Positions 25,097-63,354 are shown, counted from the first letter of the stretch. The stretch is 64,000 nt of DNA from Candidatus Aminicenantes bacterium (GCA_963702005.1 OY969696.1:713680-777679), one strand, 5' to 3'. The notes: generated by a model from the sequence alone, not told the origin. Translations and numbers: made by a program.

Positions 25097-25132
25097 TCCT
25101 GAACTGATCGCAGTCTGAAGACAGGCCAAACG

Positions 25133-25170: not shown

Positions 25171-25193
25171 TTTACCCCGATCTTAATCTCGGC

Positions 25194-27147
25194 TTAGAAT
25201 CCCCGCTCGGGGAGGATATCGTAATACTTCTTAGGGTTGTATCCGCTGTCCATCATCCTGCGCCGGATCCGGTCGGCCTCTTTACGGAAGCCGAGCTTGA
25301 AGTAGCAGGACAGAAGCCGGTTGAGAAGCGTATCCCGCCAGAGGGGGTCCGTTTCGACCTGAAGGGCCGCCTCGTAGGAATAGGCGGCCCTTCGGTAATC
25401 GAGCCCCTTCATATAGGCGAGGCCGCGCTCGATGAGATGGGGGACGTCCCAGGCCGTCCAGTCCGCGGAACGAGCCACCTCGTCGAGAAAAGACTGGAAG
25501 TCTTTAGAGTAGAGCTTAAACAGATCTTGGGGGCGACCGACGAGCCGGACCCGGCCCCGTCGGTCCGGATTGAAGATCAAGGGCGGGCCGGCCGATACGG
25601 CTGAGCCGCTTCGCTCCAGGGGGATTAGCAGGCCGCGCTCCAGAGTTCCTAGATAGATGAAGAAGCGGCGGTCCGGGTGGCAATCCAGGAGACGGACGTT
25701 GTCGGCGCCCTGGTCTCGGGCGTAAATAATGTCGGCTTTAAGGTCGGGATCATTGAAGAGAAACCCCGAGCTCCAAACTCCGGCCGGATAGAACCGGCTC
25801 GGCGAACGGAGGATGCGCATGAATACGACGGCCCGCCCAAGGGAAAGCGAGCGGAGGGTGCGGCCGATGGCCGGGGACGTGCCGGCCAGGTCGTGACCGA
25901 TCGTGTCCAGGGGATAGCCCGAATCTTTGGGCCATATCCAGCGTGGGAAACGGACGAAGAAACCGTGGCCGATGAAGAGAATGAGGAGGCCGGCCGTCAG
26001 GGCTTGGACCGCCCGGGGCTTGAGCCCCCCTCCCGAGCGGAGGAAGCGCTGGAATTCGAGAACGCCGCGCGCGCTGAGGAGAACGAGAAGGACGACGGTC
26101 TCGAACATGAGCCTGGGCCCGAGGGCGATAAGCGTTCCCCAGAAGAAGAAAAGGCCGACGAGCATCGAGAGAATCCCCGAGGCCAGGAGCAGGTCTTTGC
26201 GTCGCTCCTCGGCGGGGCGCTTGAGAACGACCAAGGGGAGAAGCGCCCACAGGGACGAGAGGGGCCATCCGAACAAGTCCCGGTTGAGCGCCTTGAGATA
26301 GGCGAAGATATTGTCCCAGCCCTGCAGCATGGTGAAGGCAGTGCCGGCCAAGCCCGTGTTTCCGAAGCCGGGAAGGATCTTGTCGCCGAATACGACCGAA
26401 TATCCCATCCTGAACGGAGAACCGTTGGTGATCTGATTGTAGGCGCCCAGGACGGCGATGAAGAAGGCCGCCCCGCCGGCGGCGGCCAGGATATTTCCCG
26501 CTCGCGACTTCAGCTCGGGCAGGGTCTTCCAGGCGTAGCTGAGAAGAAAAAGGAAGCCCGAAAATGAGGGCATTGTAAGGACGAATCATGATCATGAAGC
26601 CGAGACCGACTCCGGCCAGGAGCCCGTTGAGGAGGGTCGGCTTTGAAAGCGAGCGGATGAAAAAGACAAGGAACAGGGACGCGAAAAAGAGGCTGCTGGT
26701 GTGGTTCATGAAGCTCGAGGACATCAGCAGAAACCAGATCGAGGCTGCGCCCAGGACGGCCGCCAGGGTTCCGGTTCGGCGGTCATAAAGCTCTACGCCC
26801 AACGCGTAGAAAAGGAGGATGGTAAGGGCCGCCAGCAGGGGGTTGACTATCCAGGGCGCGCCCAGGATGATGCCGATGGCCAGCAGGAGGGGATAGCCCG
26901 GCGTGTACATGCTGTACCAGCGGCCGTTGTTGATCGTGTGCGGGAAGGCAAAAAAATCCCTGGCGCAGGGCGATGGGGCGTAGAGGCGGCCCGACGCGAA
27001 CAGACGGGCCTGGAACAGATAATCGATCTCGTCGTGGATACGGGGCGTGTGTTCGAAAACGACCCAGGAGAAGACGTTGCTGAAAATGAGCACGAAGGCG
27101 GCGGCCGCCAGGACCGGCCAAGGGATCTTATTCCATCCGTGAACCAT
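25194..27147 (-). pseudogene. GT-C fold glycosyltransferase (family 39/83, ArnT/PMT-like) with TPR-like C-terminal region, interrupted by a frameshift near 26570-26600
   Basis: Two overlapping ORFs (25750-27147 and 25194-26573) in different frames. The first reads as protein only for its N-terminal ~190 aa, with an HDEIDY loop motif and multiple TM helices. The second continues the membrane protein. The junction is at an A/T homopolymer run (gaaaaaggaagcccgaaaatgaggg). Confidence 0.6.
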
Positions 27148-27277: not shown

Positions 27278-27979
27278 ATGAGAACGATCGTTTGTCTTGG
27301 CGTCTATGTGCTGGCCGTCCTGATCATCATTCCCTTTCTCCTCGTTTGCTTTGTCTTCGGGCTGCGGGAGCCGGTCGCGGCGGCCGGGAAGGCGGCCCTC
27401 AAGCTGGGGCGGCCCATCCTCGGCCTCAAGCTCAAGGTCGCGGGCCTGCAACGCCTCGACCCGGGGACGCCCTACGTTTACATGGCCAATCACCTGAGCT
27501 TACTGGACGGGCCGATCCTGTTCGCCGTCATCCCCCGCCTGGTCCGGGTCATCCTCAAGAAGGAAGTCTTCCGGATTCCGGTCATCGGCCAGGGCATGCG
27601 CTTCGTCGATTTCGTGCCCGTCGACCGTAAGGGCTTCAAGGCCGGGAAGAAGAGCATTGAAAGGGCCGTCCGGCTCATGGCTGAGCGGAGATATTCTTTC
27701 CTCGTCTTTCCGGAGGGGACGCGGAGCCGGGACGGGCGCCTCCAGGCCTTCAAACGGGGGGGATTTTTCCTGGCGCTGGCTGGCGGCGCCCCGATCGTCC
27801 CCATCACCATTCGGGGCAGCTACGAGCTCATGCCCCGCGGCCGATTCTTCGTCAAGAAGGGCCCCGTCGGGGTCGAATTCCATGAACCCGTACCGGTCGC
27901 AGGATACGGGCCGGAAACCCTGTCCGCCCTCGTGGACAGGATTAGGGACATCATCCGATCAGAGGGAGGGGAGGATTAG
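27278..27979 (+). CDS. plsC: 1-acyl-sn-glycerol-3-phosphate acyltransferase
   Basis: NHLSLLDGP (HxxxxD) and FPEGTRS motifs; N-terminal TM. Confidence 0.8.
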   Translation: MRTIVCLGVYVLAVLIIIPFLLVCFVFGLREPVAAAGKAALKLGRPILGLKLKVAGLQRLDPGTPYVYMANHLSLLDGPILFAVIPRLVRVILKKEVFRIPVIGQGMRFVDFVPVDRKGFKAGKKSIERAVRLMAERRYSFLVFPEGTRSRDGRLQAFKRGGFFLALAGGAPIVPITIRGSYELMPRGRFFVKKGPVGVEFHEPVPVAGYGPETLSALVDRIRDIIRSEGGED

Positions 27980-27981
27980 CG

Positions 27982-28545
27982 ATGAACTACATGGCGGCGA
28001 TCGAAAACCTGGGCCTGGTCGCTCAGGGCTTTTTCGAGACCAAGCAGGGACCGTTTGAAAAGGTCGTCGACGTCTGCGTCCGGAGTCTGCTGGCCGGGGG
28101 GAAGATCCTTCTGTTCGGGAACGGCGGGAGCGCCGCCGAGGCCCAGCATTTCGCGGCCGAGCTCGTCAACAAATTCTACCGGATCCGCTCCGCCCTGCCC
28201 GCCCTGGCCTTGACGACGGACGGCTCGATTTTGACCTCGATCGCCAACGACAGCTCCTACGACAAAGTTTTCAGCCGCCAGGTCGAGGCCCTGGGGATGC
28301 CCGGGGATGTCGCCATCGGCCTTTCGACGAGCGGGACGTCGGCCAATGTCGTGGAGGGGCTGCGCACGGCCAAGGCGAGGGGCCTGGTGACCGTGGCCTT
28401 GACCGGGAAGGGCGGCGCCGAGATGGCCGAGCTCGCCGACCATCTCCTCGACGTGCCCAGTAAAACGACTCCCCGCATCCAGGAGGTTCATCTGATCATC
28501 CTGCACCTTCTGGCCGAGCTGCTCGAGGAGAGACTTTCGAGTTGA
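27982..28545 (+). CDS. gmhA: D-sedoheptulose-7-phosphate isomerase (phosphoheptose isomerase, SIS domain)
   Basis: ILLFGNGGSAAEAQHFAAEL and DVAIGLSTSGTSANV motifs. 187 aa. Confidence 0.8.
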   Translation: MNYMAAIENLGLVAQGFFETKQGPFEKVVDVCVRSLLAGGKILLFGNGGSAAEAQHFAAELVNKFYRIRSALPALALTTDGSILTSIANDSSYDKVFSRQVEALGMPGDVAIGLSTSGTSANVVEGLRTAKARGLVTVALTGKGGAEMAELADHLLDVPSKTTPRIQEVHLIILHLLAELLEERLSS

Positions 28546-28569
28546 GATAGGCGGGAGGGCCGGCTCACC

Positions 28570-28632
28570 CGTTCGCCGACGCTACCCCGCCATGAAAGGC
28601 GGGGACGAGAAGCGTGGCTCAGGGTTAAACCT
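28570..28632 (+). repeat. Conserved ~65-nt structured intergenic element, copy 2
   Basis: cgttcgccgacgctaccccgccatgaaaggcggggacgagaagcgtggctcagggttaaacc; homologous to 13922-13988. Confidence 0.5.
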
Positions 28633-28689: not shown

Positions 28690-28911
28690 TCAGCACTCAT
28701 AAGCCGTAAACGGCTTATGAGTACAGTCGCTCCAATGCCTGTAATGCGCGGTTCCCACAGAATTGAGTCCATGGAGCTCCGGGCCGGCGAGCAGCCTTGC
28801 AGCACTCATGACCCATAAACGGGCCATGAGTACTGCGAAACGCCTGCACTCATGACCCATAAACGGGCCATGAGTACTGCGAAACGCCTGCACTCATGGC
28901 TTCCATGAGTG
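28690..28911. repeat. Array of about four hairpin-containing ~44-nt repeats (two perfect tandem copies at 28802-28845 and 28846-28889) between convergent genes
   Basis: Unit gcactcatgacccataaacgggccatgagtactgcgaaacgcct, with variants cagcactcataagccgtaaacggcttatgagtac and cactcatggcttccatgagtg. Each contains a ctcatg...catgag stem. Confidence 0.7.
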
Positions 28912-31263: not shown

Positions 31264-31292
31264 GGCAGACTATTCCGTCGGAGTCCGGGCCC

Positions 31293-42470: not shown

Positions 42471-44505
42471 TCAGAAGCTCCGCGCGCAGATCCCGCCGCC
42501 CGCGGTCCCGACGTAGATCTTGCGGGCGGCGCCGTCGACCTGGATCGAGTTCACGCTCTTGACCGGCAGGTCGCCGGAGAGGTCCGTCCAGGTCGCCCCC
42601 TTGTCGGCGCTGTGCCAGAGGCCGTTCCAGTTCCCGACAAAAAGCTCGTTCGGATTGAGCTTGTTGACGGCCAGGCAATCGCCGGAATAGGGCGCGTTGG
42701 CGAGCTTGGTCCAGGAGCCGCCGCCGTCCGTGGAGGCGAAAATGCCTTCCCACCCGGTCGCGGCATAGACCGTGGCGGGAGAGCCGCCGGACACGGCCAG
42801 GGCGTCGATCGGGCACCCGGTCGAGGGCGGGCTCAACGAGGTCCAGTTGGCCCCGCCGTCCGTGCTTTTATGCAGGACCGGCGAGCCGGAGGAGGTCGTG
42901 CCGGCGACATAGATCGTCCGGGTATTGGAGGGGTCGAACGCGGCGGCGCAAGCCTGGCTGTTTTCATCGGTCCGAATCCGGACCTGGGTCCAAGTCAGGC
43001 CGCCGTCGGTCGAGATGAAAACGCCCATGTAATTTTTGCCGCCGACCACGATGTATCCCGCCGCCAGGACGCGGTTGGGAACGGCCGGGTCGACGACCAG
43101 GATCAGCCCCTGGCAGCCGGCGCCGGGAAGAAGCTGTTGAAAGTTGGCGCCTCCGTCTACAGACCTGTAGACGCGGGGGGTGCTTCAGCCGTAGGTCGAG
43201 AGATAAACCCGGTTCGGGTCCGCGCTGGGGACGGCCAGGTCGGCGATGTTGTCGCTCCCCAGGAAATCGGGGAGCTTCGTCCAGCTCGCGCAGGCGTTCG
43301 CGCTCTTGAAAACCCCGACCGACGTCGCCGCCGCGTACGCCGTGGCCGGAGCGATCGCCGAGGACGAAGAGCCGGGCATCCGGAACCCCCCGATGTTCGT
43401 CGCCAGGATCCCCGCCTGGGACGGCAGGAAGGTTTTCCCGGCGCTGGTGCTTTTAAAGACCCCCGCCGTCGCGGAGACGTGAACCGTGCTTCCCGAGATC
43501 AAGACCTTCGACGCGAGTCCGGCGAAGCCGGTCCCGCATTTGGTCCAATCCGTTCCGCCGTTCGTGCTCTTCCAGACTTCCTTGGACCCGCCGCCGTACA
43601 CGATGCTGGGATGGACCTTGTTCGAAGGCCAGGGACTCCAGGTAAGCGATATAAGACGGGCTGTTCTGCTTCTTCCAAGTGGTCCCGGAGTTGGCCGATA
43701 TCGCCACCCCCGCTACCGTGTTTTGGTAGGACACCAAGATCCGGGAGGGATTCGAGGGGTCGATGGCGACCGTGTAAGCATAGTTGACTATGGTGTGGAG
43801 ATCGTTCATGAATGCGGGCGTGACGTTCTTCCAGGCCCCCCCGCCGTTCGTGGAGCGGAAGACGCGGGCGCGATAATTCGAGCCGTCGTAGAAGTACCCG
43901 CAGAAGAAAATGGTGGACGGATTCTTGGGGGAGATGGCGATATCGCGGCCGTAGGCGTAGCTCGACGTCGCCTCCATCGTCTTATGGCTCCAGGTTTGGC
44001 CGCCGTTCGTCGTCATGAAGACGGCGAGGCATGTCTTCCAACTGGACGTGTCATAGGTATAACTCCCCGCGACGAAAATGACCTTGGGATTTTGGGGGTT
44101 GATGGCGATCCTCCCGGAATAGCCCTGCCGGTATTGGCCGAACGGAAGCTTCGTGAAGGTCGACCCTTGATCGACCGATTTATAAAGTCCGTCCGAGGCC
44201 AGGATATAGATCGTCCGCGGATTTTTAGGGTCCAGGACGAAATCGTAAGCGTAATCGCCGAGGATGGACTTGAGGGTCCAGCTCTTGCCGTTGTTGACGG
44301 ACCGGTACACCAGCCCGCGCTCGGACACCGCATAAAGCTCGGAGGGCGATTTGAGGTTGCGGGCGATGCCCATGATGTTGCCGCCGGTGGGGCCGAGCTG
44401 GGTCCAGACCGCCGCTTGATCCACAGGGCGGGCGGCGCGCATGCCGGGGCCGCCGATGAGAAGGGCGCCAAGGATTGCCCAGATATAAACGGCCGGTCTT
44501 TTCAT
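42471..44505 (-). pseudogene. BNR/Asp-box repeat beta-propeller protein, paralog D: frameshift near 43450-43600 plus in-frame TGA at 43185-43187
   Basis: Three ORF pieces (43453-44505, 43185-43601, 42471-43049) with a signal peptide and repeated S-x-D-x-G-x-T-W motifs. The last two pieces are in the same frame, separated by one TGA. Confidence 0.6.
43154..43187 (-). other. In-frame TGA plus SECIS-like hairpin (CGUCUACA-GGUC-UGUAGACG) of paralog D
   Basis: The hairpin starts 11 nt 3' of the UGA on the coding strand. The loop is GGUC. It is coded by VYRSVD using the rare codons GUA, AGG and UCU. Confidence 0.6.
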
Positions 44506-44644: not shown

Positions 44645-46666
44645 CTAAAACGTCCGCTTCCAGATGCCTCCACCTTGGGTCCCGACGTAGAGGGTGTGGT
44701 TCGTCGCGTTGAAAACGAGCTGATTTACGTACGGAACGGGCAGTCCCTGGCTGACGTCGGTCCAGGTCAGGCCCCGGTTCTGGCTGTAAAAAACGTTCTG
44801 GTTGTTTCCGACGAACACTTGGTTGGGATTGTTCTTGTTGACGGCCACGGCCCGGAAACCGTAGCTGTATGTTGTGAAGGTGCACTTGGTCCAGGAGGTC
44901 CCGCCGTTCGCACTCCGCCAGAGCTCACTGTTGGTCCCGACATAGACGATATTCGAGTCCTGGGGATCGACGGCGATCGCCTGGGGCGGGTATTGAATCC
45001 CGTTCGTGATCGCGGTCCAGTTGACCCCCCCATCCGCGCTCCTATACACGAGAGCGCTAGAGTTGGAGGTATATCCGCCGACGTAGAGGATGTTCGCGTC
45101 GCCCGGCGCGACCGCCACCACGGTCGATTGGCTGCCCTCTTGGGTGCTGATCCGGATGGGCGTCCAGTTCGTCCCCCCGTCCTTGGAGACGACGATTCCC
45201 ATCGACGTGACGCTCCCTTGTTTGACTGATCCGGTAATGATAAGTTGGCTGAAGTTCTGGGGATTCGCGTAGAGGCTTCCGTATCGGCACTCGTAGAGAT
45301 CGTAAATCTGTTGGAACGTCCGTCCTCCGTCTACAGACCTGTAGACGAATTCGCCCTGCGGTCAGCCGCTGGGCTTGACATAGATGGTATTGGGATTCGT
45401 GGGGTGAACGACGATGCTGGCGACGAGCGTGCTGCCCACGAATGTTCCGCAGGTCGTCCAGGCCGATCCCCCATTGGCCGTCTTAAAGAGGGCATATCCC
45501 GTGATCCCGGCGTAGATGGTGCTCGGCGAAGAAGGCGAGACGCCTAAAGCCGCGATGTTCGAGCCGCGGATGCCGGCGTGGCTGGGATTCCAGGTGGAGC
45601 CGCCGTTCTTGCTCAGGAAAATCCCAACCTGGCTTGCCAGGTGGACATTGGACCCGGCGGCCAGGATTATGCGGCTCTCTCCATGGATGCCGTCGCTGTA
45701 AGCTTTCCAGGTGATCCCGCCGTCCGTGCTCTTGAGGACGCTGTAGACGTAATCGAGCTCGCCTCCGGCATAAAGGATCTTGGAGTTGGCGGAATCGGCC
45801 GTGATGGAGTACACATACGTGATCCCTGGAGTCTGTTGGGCCTTCCAGCTTCCGCCGGCGTTCGTCGTCCGGGCGATGCCGTTGTTGTGGGCCACCCAGG
45901 CTTTTTTCGGGTCGTGGGCGTCTACATAGATGGCGTTACAGGCGGGATAGGTTCCGTCGAAAATCGCGGCGCCGCCGACGCTCGTCCAGGTGCTTCCTCC
46001 GTTCTTCGAAACGTAGGCGCGGCCGGTATCGACGCTGTTCTTATAGTCGTAGCCGCATAGATAAATGTAATTGGGGTTGGCCTTGGCAAAAACGACGTCA
46101 TATCCATAGCCGGAATCGGCCGAGTTCGGGAACCTCTTGACGGTCCAAGACGCGCCGCCGTTCGTCGTTTTAGCGACGGCGATATCGCTTTTGTAGTTCA
46201 CGTTGTCATACCGGTATGACCCGGCGATCATAATGATCTGGGGATTGGCCGGGTGGACGGCGATCCGGCCGTACCAGCCGGTAAATCCGGCCGGGAATGC
46301 GCGAACCGTGAAATTTTTGCCCTTGTCCGTGCTCTTGTGAAGATAGCCGTAGCTGAGGACGTAGATCGTGCTCGGGGTCTTGGGATCGACAGCGAGGTCG
46401 TAGATCGCCTGGGAGACGATGGATTGGCGCGTCCAGCTCGCGCCGCTGTTCGTGGATCTCCAAACCTGACTCGGCCAGCTCGAGCTCGCGGCATAGAGCT
46501 CGGCCGCCGACTTGGGATTCCGGGCCAGGCCGCGGATATCCCCTCCGTAGGGGCCGACCGGGGTCCAGGAACCGGCCCGGTCGGGCCGCTCGATCGGGGC
46601 GGAGCCGCGCCCGAAGAGGAAGACGGCGCACAGGACCGCCAGGATGATGACGACGGCTTTTTTCAT
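44645..46666 (-). CDS. Secreted BNR/Asp-box repeat beta-propeller protein, paralog A; single in-frame TGA at 45362-45364 (candidate selenocysteine or read-through)
   Basis: The N-terminal ORF (signal peptide MKKAVVIILAVLCAV) ends at TGA. The next 53 codons have no stop and read PQGEFVYRSVDGGRTFQQIY, a canonical BNR motif. They are in the same frame as the C-terminal ORF 44645-45202. Confidence 0.65.
45328..45364 (-). other. In-frame TGA plus SECIS-like hairpin (CGUCUACA-GGUC-UGUAGACG) of paralog A
   Basis: Perfect 8-bp stem with GGUC loop, 14 nt 3' of the UGA. Confidence 0.6.
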
Positions 46667-46762: not shown

Positions 46763-48784
46763 TTAAAACGTCCGCTTCCAGATGCCTCCACCTTGGGTCC
46801 CGACGTAGAGGGTGTGGTTCGTCGCGTTGAAAACGAGCTGGGCTACGTACGGAACGGGCAATCCCTGGCTGACGTCGGTCCAGGTCAGGCCTCGGTTCTG
46901 GCTGTAGAAAACGCCCTGGCTGGACCCGACAAACACCTCGTTGGGGTTGTTGTTGTTGACGGCCACAGCATCGAAATTGTAGGCGTTGGTCGGGAACGTG
47001 CATTTCGTCCATGAGGCCCCGCCGTTCGAACTCCGCCAAACTTCCCAAAAGGTCCCAACATAGACGATGTTCGGATCCTGGGGATCGATGGCGATAGATT
47101 GGGGCACGTATTGGATTCCGTTCGTGACGGAGGTCCAGTCAACCCCTCCGTTCACGCTCTTATAGACAAGCCCGGTATAGGTAGCGCTCTGGCCGCCGAC
47201 ATAGAGGAGGTTAGCGTTGCTGGGCGCGACCGCCGCGACGTTCGATTGGCTGCCGTCCTGGCTGCAGATTTTGACCGGCGTCCAACTCGACCCCCCGTTC
47301 GTCGAGAACACGATTCCCATCGAGGTTACGCCCCCCTGCTTGACCGAGCCCGTGATCAGGAGGAAGTTGATGTTCTGGGGGTTCGCGTAAAGGTTTCCGT
47401 ACCGGCATTCGTAGAGATCGTAAATCTGCTCGAATTTCCGTCCTCCGTCTACAGACCTGTAGACGAATTCGCCCTGGGGTCAGCCGCTGGGCTTGACGTA
47501 GATGGTGTTCGGGTTCGAGGGATGGACGACCACGCTGGCGACGAGATCGCTGCCGTAGAATTCGGTACAGGGCGTCCAGGCGGAACCCCCGTTGACCGTC
47601 TTGAGCAGAGCGTAGCCTTGGATTCCGGTGTAAATCGTGTTCGGCGAGGAAGGGGCGATGGCGAAGGCTTTGATATTTGCCGCCCGGATTCCGTTGTGGC
47701 CGGGGTTCCAGGTCGTGCCGCCGTTCTTGCTCAAGAAGATTCCCGCTTGCGTCGCCTGGTGGACCTTGGAGCCGGCGGCCAATATTTGGCGACATTCTCC
47801 GTAGAGGCCGGTGCTCGAAGCCTTCCAGGCATTACCCCCGTCGGTGCTCTTGAGGCTGCTGTAGACCAAATTGTACTTGCCGCCCGCGTAGAGGATATTC
47901 GGGTTGGAGGAATCGGCCGCGATGGCCGTAACATGCGTGATCTGGGGCGTCTGCTGGGCCTTCCAGCTCCCGCCGGCGTTCGTGGTCCGGGCGATGCCGC
48001 TGTCATGGCCCACCCAGGCTTTTTTCGGGTCGCGGGGATCGACGTGAATGGAGTAGCAGGCAGGGTAGCTGTTGTTGAAGACGGCCGACGAGCCGACGCT
48101 CGCCCAGGTGCTCCCGCCGTTCTTGGAAACGAAGACCCGCGCGGCTGTGACGCTGTTTTTCTGATCATACCCACAGAGATAAATGTAATTGGGGTTGCTT
48201 TTGGCGAATACGATGCCGCGGCCATAACCATAGTCGGTCAGATTGGAAAGTCTTTTGAGCGTCCAGGTCGCGCCGCCGTTCGTCGTCTTGGCGACGGCGA
48301 TTTCGGAATGCCAATCGGCGGTGTTGTAATAATAAGACCCGACGACCATGATAATCTTGGGATTAGCCGGGTGGACGGCGATCCGGCCGTTGTAGGACTG
48401 GAAATCGTCCGGGAACCGATGGTTCGAGAAGGTCTTGCCTTTATCCGTGCTCGTGTAGAGATAACTTTCGCTGAGGAGGTAAATCGTGCTCGGGGTCTTG
48501 GGGTCGATGGCGAGGTCGTAAATCCATTGCATGACGATCGATTGGCGCGTCCAGCTGGCGCCGCTGTTCGTGGATCTCCAAATCTGGCTCGGAGAACTCG
48601 AGCTCACGGCGTAGAGTTCGGCCGCCGACTTGGGATTCCGGGCCAGGCCTTGGATATCCCCTCCGTAGGGGCCGAGCGGGGTCCAGGAACCAGCCCGGTC
48701 GGGCCTGTCCGCCGGGCCGGGGCTGCGCCCGAATAGAAAGACGGCGCACAGGACCGCCAGGATGATGACGACGGCTTTTTTCAT
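46763..48784 (-). CDS. Secreted BNR/Asp-box repeat beta-propeller protein, paralog B; in-frame TGA at ~47480-47482
   Basis: Same architecture as paralog A, about 85% identical. The N-terminal and C-terminal ORFs are in the same frame, 53 codons apart. Confidence 0.65.
47445..47482 (-). other. In-frame TGA plus SECIS-like hairpin of paralog B
   Basis: cctccgtctacagacctgta on the plus strand gives the coding-strand GUCUACA-GGUC-UGUAGAC hairpin. The exact base coordinates are ±1. Confidence 0.55.
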
Positions 48785-48963: not shown

Positions 48964-51000
48964 TTAAAAATCCCTCCGCAGAATGCCGCCCCCCGATGTT
49001 CCGACGTAGACCTGGCGGGCGGCGCCGTCGATCTCTATCGATGTCACGCCCCTGACGGGAAGACCCTCCGAAATGTCCGTCCAGGTTGCTCCTTTGTCGT
49101 TGCTGTAGGAAAAGAAGCTCCAGTTCCCCGCGAATATTTCGTTTGGGTTGGACTCATTGATGGCGATGCAATTGCATCCCCAGGGGCCGTTCTCGAGCTT
49201 GGTCCAGGTGTCCCCGCCGTTCGTGGAGACGAAAATACCCGCCCAGGAGGTTCCCAGATAGATCGTGCCCGAGACGCTCGGATCTACGGCGATGGCCTCG
49301 ATCCTGGCTGAGGACGAGGGAGGAGTCAGCTCGGTCCAGCTCGCGCCCCCGTCCGTGCTCTTGTGCAGGGCCGGGGCATAGGAGGATTTATAGCCGGCGA
49401 CATAGATCGTATTCCTGTTCGAAGGGTCGAACGCCGCGACTTCCAGGCAGCTGCCCGTATCGTTCCTGATCTTGATTTGTTTCCAATCGGATCCGCCGTC
49501 CGTCGACAGGAAAATCCCCATTACATATTGACTGCCGCTGACGACATATCCTCCCGCTATGATGTGCTTCGGATCCGCGGGATCGGTCAGGAGGATGAGT
49601 CCTTGGCAGCCGGCTCCGGGCAGAAGTTGCTTAAAGCTTTTGCCTCCGTCTACGGAACTGTAGACGCGGGGGTTGCTTCAGCCGTAGGTCGAGAGGTAGA
49701 CCCTGTTCGGGTCCGCGTTCGGAACGGCGAGATGAGCGATGCTGTCGCTTCCCGCGAAATTGCCGAGCTTCGCCCAGCTCCTGAAGCCGTTCTCGGTTCT
49801 AAAGATGCCGTAATTGGTGACCGCGGCATAGGCTGTGTTTGCGGAGGCGGCGCTCGCCGATGAGCGGGGATATTGGAAATCCGCTATTTCGGCGGCTTGA
49901 ATTCCCGCGTGGGAGGCTTTAAAAGAGCGGCCCGCGTTCGTGCTCTTGAAGACGCCCGCCGTGGACGTGACCTGAAGCGTATTCCCCGAGGCAATGATCC
50001 TCGATACGGTGCCGCAGAGGACGTTCGAGAATGGCGTCCAATGATGTCCGCCGTCCTTGCTTTGATAGATCGTTTTATAGGCTCCTCCGTAGAGGACATT
50101 GGGATTGGTTTTGTCGAGGGAAAGGGACTGGATATTATAAAGGCTCTGAGGATTCGTCTGGTTCTGCCAACTGACCCCGGCGTCGGCCGTAAAGGCCACT
50201 CCGCCATAATACGGGACGAACAATCTCGCGGCGTTCGAGGGGTCGACGGCGACGGCGTAGGCCTGGCCGTAAAATCCCGAGCCCGCGTTCATGAAGGCGG
50301 GAGTGATGTCCTTCCAGGTCCCGCCCGTATTCGTGGAGCGGTAGATGCGGGCGATGCAGCCCGTGCCGGCCCAATAATAGCCGCAGAAATAGACCGTGGA
50401 CGGAGCCTGGGCGGGAATGACGATGTCGCGCGCGCAGCCCGAATCCGAAGTCGTGTCCATCGTCTTCTGGGTCCAGCTTTTGCCTCCGTTCGTCGATTTG
50501 AAGACGGCCAGGCACGATTTGTTGGCGCTTGAATTGGTGGTATAGCTTCCCGAAACGAAGACGATATTCGGATTTTGGGGGTGGACCGCGATTCGGCCCA
50601 GAAAGGCGTATCGATGGCCGCCGAGCGGGAATTTCGTGAATGTTGTTCCTCTATCGGCGGACTTATAGAACGCTTCCGAGGATAGGACATAGACTGTCCG
50701 CGGATTCTTCGGGTCCAGCGCTATATCGGAAGCATCGATGTCGAGGTGGGACTGGCGTGTCCAACTCCCGCAGCCGTCGGCTGACCGGAAGACTTGCCCC
50801 TGCTTGGTTAGGACGTATAGTTCGCTCGGAGATTTCGGGTGGCGCGCGATGGAGATGATATTTCCGCCGTTCGGCCCGAGTCCGGTCCAGACCGAAGCGG
50901 CCTCCGGAGACGACGATGGAGAGGGCTCCGGTCCGCGAAGGCGGCCGTAGAGCACGGCGGCGCAGAAGACGGCTAAGATGACCCCCATGGCTTTTTTCAT
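48964..51000 (-). CDS. Secreted BNR/Asp-box repeat beta-propeller protein, paralog C; in-frame TGA at 49678-49680
   Basis: N-terminal ORF (MKKAMGVILAVFCAAVLYG signal peptide) and C-terminal ORF in the same frame. The read-through sequence is SNPRVYSSVDGGKSF. Confidence 0.65.
49647..49680 (-). other. In-frame TGA plus SECIS-like hairpin of paralog C (CGUCUAC-AGUUCC-GUAGACG; the loop differs from GGUC)
   Basis: Hairpin 11 nt 3' of the UGA; 7-bp stem conserved; loop variant. Confidence 0.5.
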
Positions 51001-51753: not shown

Positions 51754-53163
51754 ATGAAAGAATCTCTTTTTCGGCTGATCCCATCTGTGGACGCCCTCCT
51801 CAATCATCCGGAGGCGCGCCGGCTCGCCGAGGCGTACGGGCGGCCCTTGGCCTTGGACGCCGTCCGCGACGAGCTCGAGGCGGTCCGGGCCGAAATCCAA
51901 ACGGCCGGCGCCGCATCATCCTTGGCCGAGAAAGACCTTGCCCCGGAGGCCTTGCTCGACCGAGTCCGGGCGCGGCTCGAGCGGAAGCTCGCCCCCTCGC
52001 TGGGACGCACGATCAACGCGACCGGGATCGTCATCCATACCGGGCTGGGGCGGGCCGTCCTGGCTCCCGAGGCGCGGGAGGCCCTGGCGCGCGTGTCCCA
52101 AGGATACTCGCAGCTCGCCGTGGATCTTGAGACAGGTCAGCGCGGCCATCGCGACGTCCATTACGCCTCCCTTCTCCGCGAGCTGACCGGCGCCGAGGCC
52201 GGTTTCGCCGTCAACAACAACGCCGCGGCGACCGTCCTCCTTCTCAACACCCTGGCCAAAGGCAAGGAGGTCATCCTCTCGCGCGGCCAGCTTGTCGAGA
52301 TCGGGGGTTCGTTCCGGATGCCCGACGTCATGGAGACGTCGGGGGCCGTCCTGCGCGAGGTCGGGACGACCAACAAGACCCATCTCCGCGACTACGAGGC
52401 GGCGATCTCGGACCGGACCGGCATCCTCCTTCGCGTCCACCACTCGAACTACCGGATCATGGGCTTCGCCGAGGAGCCGGGGATCGAGGAGCTGGTCGAG
52501 CTCGGCCGCAAGCACGGCCTCCCCGTCGTCGACGATATCGGAAGCGGGGCGCTGGTTGACCTCAAAGATTACGACCTCGAGACCGAGCCACTCGTCCAGC
52601 GGAGCGTCCGGGCCGGCGCCGACGCCGTCTGCTTCTCGGGCGACAAGCTCATCGGCGGGCCCCAGTCGGGGATCATCGTCGGCAGGGCCAAGGTCGTCGG
52701 GCGCGTCAAGAAAAACCCGCTGGCCCGCGCTTTCCGGATCGGGAAGCTGACCGCGGCCGCCCTCGAAGCGACCCTCAAGCTCTTCCTGGACCCGGACCGG
52801 CTGAGGGACCGGCATCCCGTCTACCGGATGCTGGGGCTGGACGCGAAGGAGATCGAACGGCGGGCGCGCGCCGCGTCGGATACGCTGGCGCTCGGCCTGG
52901 CCGGGCGGGCCCGCGTTTCGGTCGTAGAGGACCGGTCCCAGGTCGGAAGCGGCTCGGTCCCGGTTGAGACCCTCCCGACCTTCGTCCTCAAAATCGAATC
53001 CGCGTCTCTTCCGGCCGAGGAGCTGGCCCGCCGGCTGCGGCGCGGCGCCCCGCCCGTCTTCGGCCGCGTCCACAAGGACGCGCTCCTTCTCGACTTTCGG
53101 ACCGTCTTCCCCGAAGAGGACGGCATCGTCATCGACGCCGTCCGGGCGGCCGTCGAACCTTAA
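51754..53163 (+). CDS. selA: L-seryl-tRNA(Sec) selenium transferase (selenocysteine synthase)
   Basis: [18 protein letters not shown] matches the SelA PLP-lysine motif SGDKLLGGPQAGII. 469 aa. Confidence 0.85.
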
Positions 53164-54395: not shown

Positions 54396-56319
54396 ATGGC
54401 CGGGCTCGACAAAGACCACGTCATCTTCGGCACGGCCGGCCACATCGACCACGGCAAGAGCTCGCTGGTCAAGGCCCTGACCGGGACCGATCCCGACACG
54501 CTTCCTGAAGAAGAAGCTCCGGGGGATGACGATCGAGCTCGGGTTCGTATTCCTGGACCTCCCCGACTACGAGAAGCAGATCGTCTTCATCGACGTCCCC
54601 GGCCACGAGCGGTTCGTCAAGACGATGGCGGCCGGGGCCTCGAACATCGACGCCGCCCTCCTGGTCATCGCCGCCGACGAGGGCGTATCGGTCCAAACCC
54701 GCGAGCACTTCGACATCCTCCGTCTCCTCGACGTCCCGCTCGGGATGGTCGTCCTGACCAAGGCCGACCTGGTCGACGCGGACCGGATGGCCGAAGTCCG
54801 CGGCGACGTCGTCCGTTTCGTCGCGGGCTCCTTCCTCGAGGGCGCTCCCCTTCTGGCCGTCTCGTCCGTGACCGGCGCCGGGATCCCCGAGCTCAAAGCG
54901 GCCCTGGTTGAGATGGGGCGGAAAGTGCGGCGGCGGAGCGACACGGGCTTCTTCCGGATGCCGGTCGACCGCGTCTTCACCATCCAGGGCTTCGGCACGG
55001 TCGTGGCGGGAACGGTCCTGGGCGGCGCGGTCGGCGTCGGCGACCGGATCGAGGTTTTTCCCGATCGGCTTCCGGCCCGGGTCCGGGGCGTTCAAGTCCA
55101 CGGCCGCGGCGCCGAGCGGAGCGGGATCGGGACACGGACGGCCCTCAACCTGATGGACGTCAAGAAGGAGGATCTGCGGCGGGGACAATGCGTCGCCGCG
55201 GCCGGCAGCCTGACGCCGACCAACCGGCTCGACACGGAGCTTCTCTTGCTGGCCGACGCCGGCAAGGAGCTCAAGCACCGCGAGCGGGTCCGCCTCCACG
55301 TCGGGACGGACGAGGTCATCGCCCGAGTCGTCCTTCTCGACCGGGCCGCGGTCCAGCCGGGCGAGAAGGGCTTTGTCCAGTTCGTCCTAGAGGCGCCGAC
55401 CGTGGCGCTTCCCGGCGACCGGTTCGTCATCCGGACCTTCTCGCCGCTGATGACGATCGGAGGAGGCCGGGTCCTCGACCCGACGCCGGGCCGGCACAAA
55501 CGGTTCGACGATCAGGTCATCCAGGGGTTGGGCCGGCTCGAAGGGAGCCTCGACGAGGTCGTCGAACAGCTTTTAGTCAAGGCCCGTTTCGCGCCCCAAT
55601 CTCTGAGCGAGCTGGAGTTGAGCCTGGGCGGCCGCGCCAAGGAGGTCAAGGAATCCGTCGCCGCGCTCGTCGCGGCGGGGAAGACCGTCGCCGTCCCGTT
55701 CGAGAAGGAGGAGCGCTACCTTCACGCCGGCGCCGCGGCCGAGCTCGCCGGGAGGCTCGTCGGACTCGTCAAGGACTACTTCGAGAAGTTCCCCCACAAG
55801 CTGTCGATGCCCCTCGGCGACCTCCGCTCCCAGTTCCTGAAGCTGAGCGAGGCGGCCGTCTTCCGGAAACTCCTGGAGGAGCGGGCGGCCCAAGGCGCCT
55901 TGGACGCCCAGGGGACCGAGGTCCGCCTCCCCGAGCGCGGCGTTCGGATGACGGCCCGCGAGCAGGAACTGGCCCGCCGGATCGAGGAGGCCTATCTCAA
56001 GGCCGGCTACGACAGTCCGCTCGATGACGAGCTGTGCCGGACGTTGGGCGCCGAGCCGCCCCTGTTCGAGAAGGTCCTGTTCAGCCTCTACGACCAGAAA
56101 AAGCTGATCCGTCTCAACCCCAAGGTCACCTACCACGTCGATACGGTCGCCAGCATGAAGGCGCTCGTCCAGGAGCACCTCAAACGGAAAGGGGGCATCA
56201 CGATCGCGGAGCTCCGGGATACGATCAAGCTTTCGCGCAAGTACGCGCAGGCCGTCCTCGAGTATTTCGACCGGGTCGGGTTGACCCGGCGCGTCGAGGA
56301 CCGCCATGTGCTAAAATAG
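54396..56319 (+). CDS. selB: Selenocysteine-specific elongation factor SelB, with an apparent +1 frameshift at the GAAGAAGAAG run (~54505-54520)
   Basis: Frame 0 from ATG 54396 reads [39 protein letters not shown] (SelB G1 motif). Frame 1 from 54514 reads [15 protein letters not shown]...DVPGHERF and carries the remaining G-motifs and the C-terminal winged-helix SECIS-binding domains. Confidence 0.8.
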
Positions 56320-56331
56320 ACGACGACCCGC

Positions 56332-56427
56332 GGGAGGGTATAGGTTCCGGTGGGCCTTCTGGACTTCAAATCCAGCACGGGGCCGTGAAACGTCCCGGGT
56401 GGGTTCAACTCCCACACCTTCCCGCCA
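56332..56427 (+). tRNA. selC: tRNA-Sec (selC), anticodon TCA
   Basis: 96 nt. 8-bp acceptor stem (GGGAGGGU/ACCUUCCC, one G·U). Anticodon loop CUUCAAA. Long extra arm. T-loop GGGTTCAACTCCCAC. CCA encoded. Lies 12 nt after the selB stop. Confidence 0.85.
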
Positions 56428-56455: not shown

Positions 56456-56860
56456 TCATCCGGCCAGAAAACGGGCCGGGGACAGGGCCGTGTCGGGGAA
56501 GCTCTTGAGGAGGGCCTTGTCCGTCGTGACCAGGCGGACGTCCAGTCCCCGGGCGAGCGCGACGAACTCGCAGTCGTAGGCGGAGCATTCCGATCCGGCC
56601 GCCAGGCTCAACACGTCGAAGGAATCCACGGCGAACTCGTTGCCCTTCATCAGGGACTCAGCTTCCTTCATAATCCGGGCCGCGTCATCCAGCCCGAAGA
56701 ATCTCTTTCCGAGGCAGGCGGCCAGGACGCTCCGGAATTCGCTCCGCCATAGAGGGGGAGCCGCCCAGATCGGATCCTTGCGCAAAACCTTTTCGGCCGC
56801 GCCGCTGTGCTCCCCTTTGATGAACAGATAGGCGACCAGGTTCGTGTCGACGGCGATCAC
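56456..56860 (-). CDS. vapC: PIN-domain toxin VapC
   Basis: MIAVDTNLVAYLF... PIN acidic residues. 134 aa. Overlaps the upstream antitoxin gene by 4 nt. Confidence 0.75.
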   Translation of the reverse strand: MIAVDTNLVAYLFIKGEHSGAAEKVLRKDPIWAAPPLWRSEFRSVLAACLGKRFFGLDDAARIMKEAESLMKGNEFAVDSFDVLSLAAGSECSAYDCEFVALARGLDVRLVTTDKALLKSFPDTALSPARFLAG

Positions 56861-57102
56861 GGGCGCCCCCGTCGCTTGGCCCGGTCGATAAAGTCTTGGT
56901 CCAGGACGCGGCCGGCGGTTTTATTCCTAAGGACCCGTGCTCTGGCCAGGACATCGTCCGGCTCCAGGCGGCGGGCGGTCAAGGTCTCCTCGAAGATCGA
57001 GAGGATTTCGCCGTTGATGCTCCGGCGGTTCCGACCCGCCCGGGCCCTGATCTTGTCGAACAGCTCCTGGGGGATATTCTTGACGGTGAAGTTCGCTGGC
57101 AT
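56857..57102 (-). CDS. vapB: Antitoxin (ribbon-helix-helix/Arc-like, VapB/FitA-type)
   Basis: MPANFTVKNIPQELFDKIRARA, typical of the RHH antitoxin N-terminus. Coupled to vapC. Confidence 0.65.
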   Translation of the reverse strand: MPANFTVKNIPQELFDKIRARAGRNRRSINGEILSIFEETLTARRLEPDDVLARARVLRNKTAGRVLDQDFIDRAKRRGRP

Positions 57103-58688: not shown

Positions 58689-61154
58689 TTATCGTATGGT
58701 CACGGTCGCGGGCGGGCCCTCGCGGCCCGTTTCCGGATCGACCGCGACAAGCCGGTACGTGTAGGCCTTGGTCTTGTCCACGCCGCGCTCCCGATACTCG
58801 AATGTCGCCGCGTCGAGCGAAGCGACGAGGCGCGGCGTCGTCCCCTCGACCAGGTAGAGCCGGTAGGTCAGCCCGGCGTCGTTGGCAGGATTCCGCCGCC
58901 AGTTCAGGACGTTGACGTACTCGACGAAGAGGAGCGAGCGGTTTTCTTTCTTCGTGCCTTTGAAGTCGAGCGGTTCGTAGATGGTCCGCTGGAATTCGGC
59001 CCGGACGGCCAGGTCGCGGTCGACGGTGACGGTCAAGGGATTCGTCGTCCCCGATGCGTCTCCGCTCCAACCCATGAAATGATAGTTCGAGGCCGCCGTC
59101 GCCGTGATGGTCACTTGACTTCCCGGGCTATGTTTATAGGTTCCGGGAGCGGGCGTCGTCGTGCCGCCCGAGGTCGCGCTGATGACGAGGGCGTACTGGC
59201 CGCCCGGCCGGATTTGGCAGAGGCCTCCGCCCGGGGTCGCGGCGACGAGCGTGCCGGTCCCCTTGACGAAGTCGAGGGCGCTGACCGTTTTCACGATCAG
59301 GCCCAGGCTGTAATCGGACCAGGAACTCCCGAAATCCACGCTCTTCCGGACGCCGGCCCAGCCGCCCGCGTAAACCTGGTTGGGGAGGGCCGGATTGACC
59401 GCGATGGCCGTCGTCGAGGCGGTCAGGCAATGGGTCCAGGTCGCGCCGGAGTCCTCGCTGCGGAAGACGCCGTCGTCGGACGCGGCGTAAATACGGAAGG
59501 GCGAGACGGGATCGAGGACGAGGGCGGTGATGGGAGCCGAAAATACGTTGGTCCCCAGCCCCGTCCAGGTTTCGCCTCCGTCCGATGTCCGGCAAACCGA
59601 GCCCAGGCTGTTCTGAGTGCCTCCGACATAGATGATCTGCTCGTTCGTAGGATGCACCGCGATGGCGCAGACCATCCCGGGATCGGGCAGGAGCTTGGAC
59701 GCCCAATTGGCCCCTCCATCCGTCGAGATATACAAGGTGACATTGCTGCCCGGCGGACTGCCTCCCGCGTAAAGATGATCGAAGTTCTGGGAATGAACGA
59801 CCAGAACATCGAGCTGGCCCTGCTGCAACAGGCTCGTCCAGCTGTTGCCTCCATCTACAGACCTGTAGATGTAGTCTCCGGACCCTCAGCCCTGGCCGGG
59901 CGCGATCATATAAACGGTCCGGGGGTTGCCGGGATCGACGGCCGCGATATAACCCTGATCGTCGCAGCTGTAAAAATAGGGGAGGAGGGACCAGGTCCGG
60001 CCGAAGCTGTCGCTCCGATAGAATCCGCAGTTGGAAACATTGGCATAAAGGACGTTGGGGTAAGAGGCCGGTACATAGAAGGACGGGACCCGGCAGGCCC
60101 GAACCCCGGTTTGACTGGCCGCCCAGGTCGCGCCCGCGTCCGTGCTGCGGTAGACTCCGGCGTCCGAGCCGAAGAAAACCGAGCTTCCCGCCACGGCCAT
60201 GCGGCGGCAGTCGCCGAGAAGACCCGTTTCGGCGGACGTCCAGTCGATGCCGCCGTCCGTGCTCTTGTAGACCCTTTTCTGATAGCCGGCATAGAGGACG
60301 GAGGAATTCGCCGGGTCGATGGCCAGCCCGTAAGCGCAGCTGGTGTTGGCGCTGCTCTGCCAGGTCTGTCCCGAGTCCGAGGAGCGATAGACGCCCCCTT
60401 CGGTCGCGGCGAAGACCCGGGAGGGATTGTTCGGATCCGTTGCCAGGTCGTAGATCTGGGTTGAGAGCCCGCCCGTGATGTCTTGCCAGGAATCGCCGCC
60501 GTTCGTCGTCCGGTAGACGAAGAATTTAGCCGTCGTGGCGGTCCGGTAAATCCCGCTGACATAAATGACGGCCGGATTCCCGAAATTGACGCAGAGGCTG
60601 TGGCTCTCGGCGAGATCCGCGCCGGGCGAGATTCGCTTGGACGTCCAGGTTTGGCCGCCGTCCGTCGTGCGGGCTAATCCGACCGAGGCCGTCTCGGACG
60701 TTATCTGGCCGAGGATGAACAGGCTGTCGGGATCGCTGGGATGGGCGGCCAGCCGTTCGAAGCTGGTGAAGCCGCGCGGATTCGTGAGCTGCGTCCAGGA
60801 CGAGCCGCCGTTTCGGGATTTGAAAAGGGAGAGCCAGCTCATGGCATAGAGGCCGCCGCTTCCCGGAGGGCCGAAGGCGAGGTCCGTGATGGGATCATTG
60901 AATAACCCGATCCTCTTCCAGGTTTTGCCTTCGTTCGCGCTCCGGTAGACCTGGGCCGGCGTCGAATCGAAGACGGCCATGAGATCGTTGGCGTTCGCGG
61001 GATTCACGGCCAGGTCGCGCAGGCCGCCGCCGTCGGGACCGATCGATTTCCAAGCGGGGTTGTCCGCCCCGGCCGGCCGCGGCCGGGTTGGAGCGGCGGG
61101 AGGGCCGAGGATGAGCGCGGCTATCAGGATCGAGAATCCAATTCCTTTTTTCAT
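58689..61154 (-). CDS. Secreted BNR/Asp-box repeat beta-propeller protein, paralog E; in-frame TGA at ~59886-59888
   Basis: N-terminal ORF (signal peptide MKKGIGFSILIAALILG) and C-terminal ORF 58689-59828 in the same frame, 19 codons apart. Read-through reads GSGDYIYRSVDGGNSW. Confidence 0.65.
59853..59888 (-). other. In-frame TGA plus SECIS-like hairpin of paralog E (AUCUACA-GGUC-UGUAGAU)
   Basis: 7-bp stem with GGUC loop, 14 nt 3' of the UGA. Coordinates ±1. Confidence 0.55.
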
Positions 61155-61371
61155 AAAAACACCCTCCGCCTGGAATCAGCAGGGTCCGAATCTGATTCCC
61201 GATTATTTTATATAGGAGGGCGGTCGGGGAGTCAACCTTTCGACACCCATAGCCGTTTCCGGCTTAGTATGAGTGCTGCAAGGCTGCTCCCCGGCCCCGG
61301 ATTGATTTGTGGAAGCTTTTCTGGTAAACAAGGGAGACAGGAACCGACATCGCGGGAAGGAGGTAGGGCTC

Positions 61372-63354
61372 ATGCAGGCTTGGAAGCGCCGATTCCCGGC
61401 GGCCCTCATCAAGATCCTGATCCTCGGCGCGCTCGCCTTTCTTTCGGTCAAGCCGGCCGCCGCCCAGAATCCGATCGACTTTACCCTCAAGGACGCGGAC
61501 GGCAATGACGTCCACCTCCGCGACTTCCTGGGCAATAAGGTCGTCCTGGTCGATTTCTGGGCGACCTGGTGCGTCCCCTGCGTCAAGGAGCTGTCCCACT
61601 TCCAGCGCTTCTACGAGTCCTATAAGGACAAGGGTTTGGTCGTCCTGGCCATTTCCGAGGACGGCCCCGAGACCGTGGCCATGGTCAAGCCCTTCCAGCG
61701 GCGCTACAAGTACACCTTCACCATCCTCCTCGACTCCGAATCCAAGGTCCTGGCCCTCTACAACCCGAGGGTCGTCTTGCCCTACACGCTCCTCATCGGC
61801 CGCGACGGCCGGATCGCCAAGATCCACCAGGGCTACAGCCTGGGCGACGAGAAAATGCTCGAGCAGGAGATCGTCGAGCTTCTCGAGCCCAAGGCGGAAG
61901 TCAAGGCGAGCCGGATGTCGCTGAGCGCCAGCGAATCCTTCCTGTACCGCCATTTCACCGACAAGGATTATGTCGACGACTCGCGCGAGGGCCGGCCCAA
62001 CCAAATCCTCAACAAGTTCGACCTGACCCTTAACGCGGGCGATCTCCTGGTCGGGATCAGGGCCGACGCGAACCTCGACTTCTCGCCGATGCGGCACGAT
62101 TACAGCCTGGCCAAGCGGTTCGTCGAGTTCAACAAATGGAACTTCAGCCTGCGGGCCGGGGATTTCTATTACTCGGTGGGGCGGGGGCTCGCCTTCAGCC
62201 TGCTCAAGATCTTCGAGAAGGAGGGCCTCGAGTACATCATCGACACGACCATCGAGGGCGGGAAGCTCAGCTACGGCGGGAACAAGTTCGAAGCCTGGGG
62301 GGGCTGGGTCGAACGCGAGCGGACGTCGCGGGAGGCGCCGATCGTCCGGGACCTGGTCGGGGGGCTGAGCGTCGGGACCCGCGTCTTGAGCTTCGCCGAC
62401 GTCAACCTCAACGTCGTCGGGGCGCGGCTCGAGCCGGGCTCCGCGTTGGGGAGCCGGAACGTCTCCATGGAAACCCTGACCTTCTCGGCGGCCAAGATCG
62501 GCAATTTCGCCAAGTTCTACGGCGAGGGCCTCCTCATCCAGAAGGAAAAATTCTATGTCCCGAACACGATCTACGGCCACGGCGTTTATCTCGAGTCGGG
62601 GCTGTTCTTCGGGAACCTGACTCTTTTATTCGAGTTCAAGGATTACCAGGACCTCGACTTCGAATACAACCGGCCGCCCCTGCTTGAGAGCGAGCAGCTG
62701 GCCGTCGTCGCCAACCAGTTCGTGACCTCGGCCAAGGACTCGACCGGCGCCGCGATCCGGGCCGATTGGTATTTCCCGGGGGCCTCGACCCTTCTCTTTG
62801 CCAAGGGCAGCTGGATCGACGACCTGCCCGGCCACTTTCCGCGGACGATCACCCATTTTTTCGGGGGCGTCGAGAAGAAGTTCAAGGAGACGGGCTGGCT
62901 GACCCTGATCGGCGGCTACCGAAACGAGCAGGCGAGCTCCCTGGTTTTTTACTATACGGCGGGCCGGACCTTCCATTGGCAGGGGAATCTCAGCTATCCC
63001 CTGACCAGGCGTCTGAGCCTCGAGCTCGACATCGAGGCCAAGGACTTCGACGGAACGGTCCCCTTCGGAGGGAGGTTTACCGATTATTTCGAACGGCGCT
63101 CGTACCTGTCCTTGAGCTACTCCCCCCGTCTCATCCTGACCGTCCTCTACGACCGGACGGACGACCCCGAGATCCTGGCCGTCAAGAACAAGAAGGATTG
63201 GTGGGGGACGCAGCTCGAGATCAAACTATCCCACGCCAAGTCGATCCGGATCTTCTACGGGTCCAACAAGGGGGGCGTCAAGTGCGCGGGCGGCGTCTGC
63301 AAATTCTTCCCGCCCTTCGAAGGGTTGAGGATCGACGGCGTCCTTAGGTTCTGA
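61372..63354 (+). CDS. TlpA/ResA-like thioredoxin (WCVPC) fused to a ~500-aa C-terminal domain ending in Phe (outer-membrane beta-barrel-like)
   Basis: Signal peptide; VVLVDFWATWCVPCVKE thioredoxin-fold active site. The C-terminal region has alternating-hydrophobic strands and ends ...GLRIDGVLRF. Confidence 0.55.
   Translation: MQAWKRRFPAALIKILILGALAFLSVKPAAAQNPIDFTLKDADGNDVHLRDFLGNKVVLVDFWATWCVPCVKELSHFQRFYESYKDKGLVVLAISEDGPETVAMVKPFQRRYKYTFTILLDSESKVLALYNPRVVLPYTLLIGRDGRIAKIHQGYSLGDEKMLEQEIVELLEPKAEVKASRMSLSASESFLYRHFTDKDYVDDSREGRPNQILNKFDLTLNAGDLLVGIRADANLDFSPMRHDYSLAKRFVEFNKWNFSLRAGDFYYSVGRGLAFSLLKIFEKEGLEYIIDTTIEGGKLSYGGNKFEAWGGWVERERTSREAPIVRDLVGGLSVGTRVLSFADVNLNVVGARLEPGSALGSRNVSMETLTFSAAKIGNFAKFYGEGLLIQKEKFYVPNTIYGHGVYLESGLFFGNLTLLFEFKDYQDLDFEYNRPPLLESEQLAVVANQFVTSAKDSTGAAIRADWYFPGASTLLFAKGSWIDDLPGHFPRTITHFFGGVEKKFKETGWLTLIGGYRNEQASSLVFYYTAGRTFHWQGNLSYPLTRRLSLELDIEAKDFDGTVPFGGRFTDYFERRSYLSLSYSPRLILTVLYDRTDDPEILAVKNKKDWWGTQLEIKLSHAKSIRIFYGSNKGGVKCAGGVCKFFPPFEGLRIDGVLRF

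Follow-up and report, generated by a model that had tools for sequence, protein, structure and literature searches.

Introduction

Can a bacterium whose selB gene is split over two reading frames still insert selenocysteine (Sec) into its proteins, or does the split exist only in its deposited sequence? This question is raised by a stretch of 64,000 nt (in the following: the window) from a Candidatus Aminicenantes bacterium (GCA_963702005.1 OY969696.1:713680-777679), in which selB occupies positions 54396-56319. The original prediction had placed the G1 motif of SelB in one frame and the remainder of the protein in the +1 frame, and had named three possible causes: a sequencing error in a homopolymer or short repeat, a genuine inactivating mutation or a programmed frameshift. 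If the frameshift were real, no Sec would be inserted and translation of at least five neighbouring genes would end prematurely at UGA codons, making the genome a rare snapshot of trait loss. We found that the split had been observed correctly but that it is most probably not a biological feature. In our view, it is likely an assembly artefact, i.e. a one-base insertion in the deposited consensus and not in the organism.

Results and discussion

One base too many in selB

The selB gene as deposited can be divided into three segments, which are supported by translation, alignment with relatives and the ratio of non-synonymous to synonymous substitution rates (dN/dS):

54396..54512, plus strand: selB codons 1-39, with the G1 motif (P-loop), ending in ...DTLPEE
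54507..54516, plus strand: junction GAAGAAGAAG, 10 nt; in relatives 9 nt (GAR GAR AAR, encoding E-E-K)
54514..56319, plus strand: selB codons 40-640 and stop codon in the +1 frame, with the G2-G4 motifs, domains II-III and the C-terminal winged-helix domains that bind the SECIS (selenocysteine insertion sequence)

The gene opens at ATG 54396 on the plus strand, and the P-loop lies in the frame of this codon. Past the junction, the same frame encodes non-homologous sequence until it reaches a stop codon at 54909-54911. An open +1 frame begins just past TGA 54478-54480, carries the DVPGHERF motif and ends with TAG 56317-56319; the corresponding open reading frame (ORF) spans 54526..56319 and encodes 597 aa. 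From ATG to stop, selB comprises 1924 nt, which is 1 mod 3. Translations and coordinates confirmed the predicted distribution of the gene over two frames as well as the predicted switch site, which is confined to cttcctGAAGAAGAAGctccggggg (54507-54516), the stretch read also as GAAGAAGAAG. The extra base is either A 54512 or G 54513, and removal of one of the two yields an uninterrupted SelB of 640 aa. The selB gene of the window carries an apparent 1-nt insertion, and a single frame is only obtained when one base is removed. An altered number of GAA repeat units at the junction was ruled out, as such a change would stay in frame.

The one-base-repaired SelB reached 343.9 bits against the NCBIfam model TIGR00475 (selB; cut-off 242.25), and its residues 10-639 aligned with Escherichia coli SelB of PDB entry 5LZB, straight through the segment LPEEK-x-RGMTI. 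Because the repaired product exceeds the cut-off of the model and aligns with a solved structure, its identity as SelB does not reflect a chance resemblance. It is a full-length SelB in which EF-Tu-like domains I-III are joined to winged-helix domains at the C-terminus. The annotated product of the locus, P0001, has 597 aa, starts at ATG 54526 and is 100% identical to the ORF of the window. The Pfam domains GTP_EFTU, Beta-barrel_SelB and WHD_2nd/3rd_SelB were found on P0001 and on the proteins of relatives; the 597-aa ORF matches the TIGR00475 model only from position 36 onwards and lacks the P-loop. In the sequence as deposited, the P-loop (residues 12-22) is not contiguous with the G2-G4 motifs and becomes so only after the one-base deletion.

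Might the 597-aa product, which starts at Met-44 of the repaired protein, be a functional shortened SelB, or one half of a split protein acting together with an N-terminal peptide? The ORF is long, has been called as a gene and is preceded by GGGGG just 5' of ATG 54526, but this GGGGG abuts the start codon with zero spacing. GTP binding by translational GTPases depends on the P-loop, and the missing motif GxxxxGKS is invariant in all relatives and in the solved SelB and EF-Tu structures. P0001 can thus not be a working GTPase, since its P-loop is missing. In addition, the shortened architecture occurred in no relative except for broken gene calls in long-contig assemblies. We therefore regard a functional shortened or split SelB as highly improbable.

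Relatives lack the additional base

The junction comprises 10 nt in the window but 9 nt in each of the 14 relatives that were inspected. The comparison with close relatives that had been proposed along with the original prediction thus gave a uniform picture, with the relatives one base shorter and in a single frame at this position. The closest relatives (P0002-P0004) are 90% identical and comprise 640 aa, i.e. the repaired SelB has the same length and the same local sequence. In the DNA alignment of the window with relative L001, the junction shows a single 1-nt gap. Compared to L001-L003 (dS approximately 0.40), dN/dS amounted to 0.05-0.06 upstream of the break (codons 1-39) and to 0.15-0.16 downstream of it (codons 40-640). 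Judged from these substitution patterns, both parts of selB are under purifying selection.

The conserved single frame bears directly on the idea of a programmed +1 ribosomal frameshift or quadruplet decoding in GAA GAA G AAG, by which full-length SelB would be produced at a regulated level, as is known for prfB (release factor 2). Recoding inside a gene of the recoding machinery is an attractive regulatory idea, and exactly the conserved sequence LPEEKLRG would be obtained if the ribosome shifted by +1 after the second GAA. In both genes, a +1 change is needed early in the coding sequence of a translation factor. However, the shift in prfB takes place at a conserved CUU UGA C slippery/stop site with a Shine-Dalgarno-like stimulator upstream of it, and these features are kept across most bacteria, while selB of the window has neither. 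The site reads GAA GAA GAA GCU without a stop or rare codon, and the 0 frame stays open for about 130 further codons (to 54909). A tRNA-Glu on GAA is unable to re-pair with AAG, given the rules derived from prfB and +1 programmed ribosomal frameshifting. No Shine-Dalgarno-like element was found in the 20 nt upstream of the junction, and the predicted folding of the 90 nt downstream does not exceed that of shuffled controls (z = -0.49). The extra base is present in none of the 14 relatives, and those that are 87-94% identical read the gene in one frame. Moreover, similar single-base insertions occur in two unrelated genes of the window in other sequence contexts (see below). As the site is not conserved and frameshift signals are lacking, we reject a programmed frameshift, which we consider scarcely credible. 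Among the three causes originally named, it is the short-repeat sequencing or assembly error that is best supported.

The second cause, a genuine and very recent inactivation of selB, either fixed in the strain or segregating in the natural Aminicenantes population, needs to be taken more seriously, although we consider it unlikely. The cell would then produce a 39-residue SelB N-terminus with an out-of-frame tail and, at most, a P-loop-less fragment besides; UGA would not be decoded as Sec and selenoprotein genes would be truncated at this codon. The insertion is, after all, present in the sequence as deposited. Comparison with relatives revealed no second lesion in either part of selB and no relaxed constraint, which speaks against a null allele, though a very recent event would leave no such traces. 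The distribution of broken selB genes among relatives is a further argument against it. In short-read assemblies, every relative's selB that covers the whole gene is intact, whereas selB is broken at other positions in two 'MFD' long-read metagenome-assembled genomes (MAGs) of related Aminicenantes. In MFD04716.bin.2.239 (L021, 10755-10800), one base is inserted in a GAAG context, which is the sole gap compared to the 95%-identical contig L013. In MFD05674.bin.2.115 (L027, 10001-11909), selB has about four frame changes. In the protein library, short N-terminal SelB pieces recur on contigs of 73 kb to 2.4 Mb.

Further frame breaks in the window

If the additional base in selB stems from an error process, similar events would be expected elsewhere in the same assembly. 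The whole 64 kb were scanned for changes of the coding frame without a stop codon, based on codon-position GC content and a self-trained codon log-likelihood, and candidates were checked against Pfam. Exactly three broken genes were found among the roughly 55-60 genes of the window: selB, a GT39 glycosyltransferase gene and the BNR-repeat gene p4. Each of them has a length of 1 mod 3 and is restored by a one-base deletion, and all three breaks are insertions in A/T runs. The two additional sites are:

43621..43622, minus strand: extra A in GA[A]C of the BNR-repeat gene p4 (42471-44505); its deletion restores an Asp conserved among paralogs
26547..26551, minus strand: T5 run in the GT39/PMT_2 glycosyltransferase gene (25194-27147); T4 restores a 650-aa ORF

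After deletion of the extra A, p4 reads ...SLAFDKVHPSIVYGG. An alternative repair of p4 by deleting a C from GGTCC was replaced by the deletion of the A from GAAC, which restores the conserved Asp and coincides with the end of an independent contig. In the glycosyltransferase gene, the Pfam PMT_2 match crosses the repaired junction. Several other candidates were discarded: overlapping same-strand ORF pairs at 6.3, 6.8, 8.1, 13.2, 19.2, 22.7, 27.9, 41.4 and 42.4 kb turned out to be separate complete genes, and abutting same-frame ORFs at 33570, 34470, 37249 and 39688 are ordinary gene boundaries.

Three single-base insertions in 64 kb correspond to about one per 20-21 kb and affect approximately 5% of the genes, which is more than in a normal genome. 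Since one of the three is located in an unrelated GT39 gene, they point to an error process rather than to the decay of one pathway. Bacterial indel mutation is biased towards deletion; that all three events are insertions is hence another observation that counts against a null allele. We infer that the selB insertion shares its origin with the insertions in p4 and in the glycosyltransferase gene.

Comparison with independent assemblies

Two of the three sites could be compared with independently assembled sequences. The counterpart of the glycosyltransferase (P0121) is encoded on L032, a contig from the Joint Genome Institute (JGI), as an uninterrupted protein of 650 aa with 99% identity. L032 aligns with positions 24862-28604 of the window with 98.6% identity over 3,743 nt, with 52 mismatches and exactly one gap. 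This sole gap is T4 compared to T5 of the window at 26547-26551, and the insertion in the glycosyltransferase gene, which has no relation to Sec, is thereby contradicted by a closely related contig.

Contigs of the same population were obtained from Logan assemblies of run ERR10755944. They are identical to the window over 4,918 nt (L038, 100%) and 946 nt (L040, 100%) and nearly identical over 10,443 nt (L039, 99.99%). L039 terminates exactly at 43621, amid the AA that bears the extra base of p4. A de Bruijn graph branches where reads disagree at a base, and the end of L039 is suggestive of a read-level disagreement between GAC and GAAC, which would produce just such an end. The window has no repeated 31-mers at the end of L039, which excludes window-internal repeats as the cause.

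Origin of the additional base

P0001 is encoded on a single contig of 4,309,361 bp at NCBI and ENA. The closest relatives with a name are MAGs of Candidatus Aminicenantes, which include 'MFD' chromosomes of 4.07 and 4.28 Mb. Because the 4.31-Mb single contig resembles these chromosomes, we infer that the source assembly is probably of Nanopore type. The MFD MAGs were built from Nanopore reads only, by Flye assembly and one round of Medaka without short reads (PMC12313526), and consensus indels of Nanopore data are a known cause of frameshifted gene calls, particularly in bins below approximately 40x coverage (Sereika et al. 2022, PMC9262707).

The following scenario would thus be in accordance with the data. 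The window would originate from a single-contig MAG of an uncultured Aminicenantes bacterium, of a type usually built from long reads without short-read polishing. Such a consensus may retain occasional single-base indels, each of which would break a gene call. In the cell, selB would consist of 640 uninterrupted codons and read either ...GAA GAG AAG CTC... or ...GAA GAA AAG CTC... at the junction. The resulting normal SelB would bring Sec-tRNA(Sec) to UGA codons that precede a SECIS hairpin, and at least five genes predicted to have this arrangement are located within 12 kb. The likeness to the indels described for Nanopore-only MAGs (PMC9262707, PMC12313526) is considerable: a one-base indel splits a conserved gene, several such events occur per 100 kb and an uncultured lineage is represented by a single contig of several Mb. 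The MFD MAGs (PMC12313526) resemble the window also in that their selB is broken, albeit at other positions. Two of the three sites in the window are also called into question by independent assemblies, in which the sequence differs (glycosyltransferase gene) or a branch is suggested (p4).

Several points weigh against a consensus error. With only AA dinucleotides in a purine-rich run, the selB site lacks the long homopolymer that is the classic context of Nanopore errors; this would also fit a null allele. The audited part of the window is otherwise very accurate, with one mismatch and no gap over 16.3 kb of independent contigs, and accuracy elsewhere would likewise be in line with a real mutation in selB. 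Two of the three breaks lie in Sec-related genes, selB and p4, which also fits a real decay of the trait. The contig end in p4 could reflect a true polymorphism; if run ERR10755944 is Illumina data, the branch would be a real polymorphism and not a read error. Finally, a real selB frameshift with intact selA, selC and selD has a precedent in Yersinia pestis CO92 (PMC1273633), which is discussed below.

Metagenome, protein and exact-sequence searches did not yield an independent copy of the selB junction belonging to the same species, which likewise counts against our reading. A metagenome scan with a codon-degenerate pattern that allowed for 9-12 nt at the junction yielded five contigs, all of them from other species, as even the closest (L037) has an identity of 87%. 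A protein search with the repaired N-terminal 141 aa of SelB gave best matches with only 81-86% identity. The exact-sequence search found neither the repaired SelB nor the frame-0 ORF, and two guessed partial SelB products as well as SelD with an alternative start were likewise absent; exact matches to SelA and SelD were confined to the source genome. The route to the junction via the genes for VapC and its antitoxin ended with L038, which stops inside the tRNA-Sec gene and 1.8 kb short of the junction. The corresponding route via an acyltransferase gene ended with L040 (946 bp), which falls short of the T5 site.

Is the genome committed to Sec decoding?

The order of the gene cluster is selA-selD-selB-tRNA-Sec, and its remaining members are intact:

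51754..53163, plus strand: selA, 469 aa; TIGR00474 562 bits, model positions 2-454 of 455; same length in L001
53179..54384, plus strand: selD, Cys form, 401 aa; TIGR00476 363.9 bits; same length in L001
56332..56427, plus strand: tRNA-Sec (anticodon UCA), detected by ARAGORN; Rfam RF01852 73.8 bits compared to a gathering score of 47, full length

Within 12 kb of selB, five BNR genes with an in-frame TGA codon were found, four of which (p1-p4) are arranged in tandem:

42471-44505, minus strand: BNR/Asp-box repeat gene p4; in-frame TGA 43185; hairpin 43154-43173
44645-46666, minus strand: BNR/Asp-box repeat gene p1; in-frame TGA 45362; hairpin 45328-45347
46763-48784, minus strand: BNR/Asp-box repeat gene p2; in-frame TGA 47480; hairpin 47446-47465
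48964-51000, minus strand: BNR/Asp-box repeat gene p3; in-frame TGA 49678; hairpin 49647-49666
58689..61154, minus strand: BNR-repeat gene p5; in-frame TGA 59886-59888; hairpin 59852-59871

The TGA occupies the same loop position (...G-U-...[VI]YRSVDGG) in all five secreted BNR/Asp-box beta-propeller paralogs, which match the F510_1955-family glycosylhydrolase-like model of NCBIfam with 183 bits. A SECIS-like hairpin (CGUCUAC-AGGUCU-GUAGACG) follows 14-17 nt 3' of the TGA and is paired in five of five genes. In p5, its stem has the compensatory form AUCUAC/GUAGAU with one G-C to A-U change; with only five paralogs, covariation of the stem was not statistically significant (98 of 500 shuffles reached the observed value). 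The hairpin region uses A/T-ending codons, which is unusual in this genome with its high GC content at third codon positions. In a library of 1.8 billion proteins, seven sampled collinear representatives end exactly one residue before the U column (one of them is the fragment of p3 itself), and a Cys residue is found in this column in 4 of the 23 full-length BNR homologs. Gene callers also split p5 at the TGA in L038. Based on these sequence features, we regard the five BNR genes as putative selenoprotein genes that would need SelB. BNR/Asp-box proteins with UGA and SECIS-like hairpin apparently constitute an undescribed family of bacterial selenoproteins, and a literature search for BNR in combination with selenoprotein yielded no paper.

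The genome thus looks committed to Sec decoding, as the other sel genes are intact, selB is constrained and five TGA-containing genes with SECIS-like hairpins are located nearby. The retention of these five genes along with intact selA, selD and tRNA-Sec is a further argument against a null allele. But, could the organism not have lost selB so recently that all other components are still in place? Such a situation has been documented in Y. pestis CO92 and Mediaevalis, in which selB is a confirmed frameshift pseudogene, while selA, selC and selD are intact and a UGA codon persists in a gene for formate dehydrogenase (Romero et al. 2005, PMC1273633). The two cases are alike with respect to the frameshifted selB, the intact selA, selC and selD and the retained UGA-containing genes. 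They differ in that the frameshift in Y. pestis was confirmed by sequencing of independent isolates, whereas the window represents one consensus with other doubtful single-base insertions. They also differ in the costs: with at least five local TGA/SECIS genes, a loss would be costlier for the genome of the window than for Y. pestis CO92. If true, the null allele would represent the loss of Sec decoding caught at its first step, with a much larger set of dependent genes than in Y. pestis CO92.

Given that we favour an error in the consensus, the message for annotation is to read selB as an intact gene encoding 640 aa and to score the genome as Sec-decoding. Frameshifted gene calls in this assembly need to be polished or flagged before pseudogenes or the loss of traits are deduced from them.

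Other features of the window

The region around the cluster holds further genes. Directly downstream of tRNA-Sec, a VapC (PIN) toxin and a FitA/Arc-like antitoxin are encoded as a pair (56456-57102, minus strand). L001 and L003 carry genes with TIR domain and AAA genes beside tRNA-Sec instead. Because the cargo of relatives differs at this position, the flank of tRNA-Sec is apparently variable. In L037, the relative with 87% identity, a second copy of the selB 3' end and tRNA-Sec is present at 6827-7032, approximately 1.3 kb downstream of the first, and is 94.7% identical to positions 56222-56427 of the window. This second copy suggests that the region was duplicated locally or that tRNA-Sec serves as an integration site.

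Adjoining p5, a 682-aa protein is encoded at 61306-63354 on the plus strand, with an N-terminal ResA/AhpC-TSA-like thiol-disulfide oxidoreductase domain and a C-terminal match to DUF6029. It has weak matches to selenoprotein-related redox families (WAxxUGC_long, SelL-related).

Two observations were made at a greater distance from the cluster. An ORF of 791 aa (28894-31269, minus strand) contains a complete class I/II aminotransferase domain at residues 32-390, followed in the same frame by approximately 400 residues without a Pfam match; it is either an unusual fusion or a protein with an unrecognised C-terminal domain. Between this gene and a SIS-domain gene, two overlapping intergenic stretches of repeated 31-mers (28802-28854 and 28846-28898) form a short tandem or inverted repeat.

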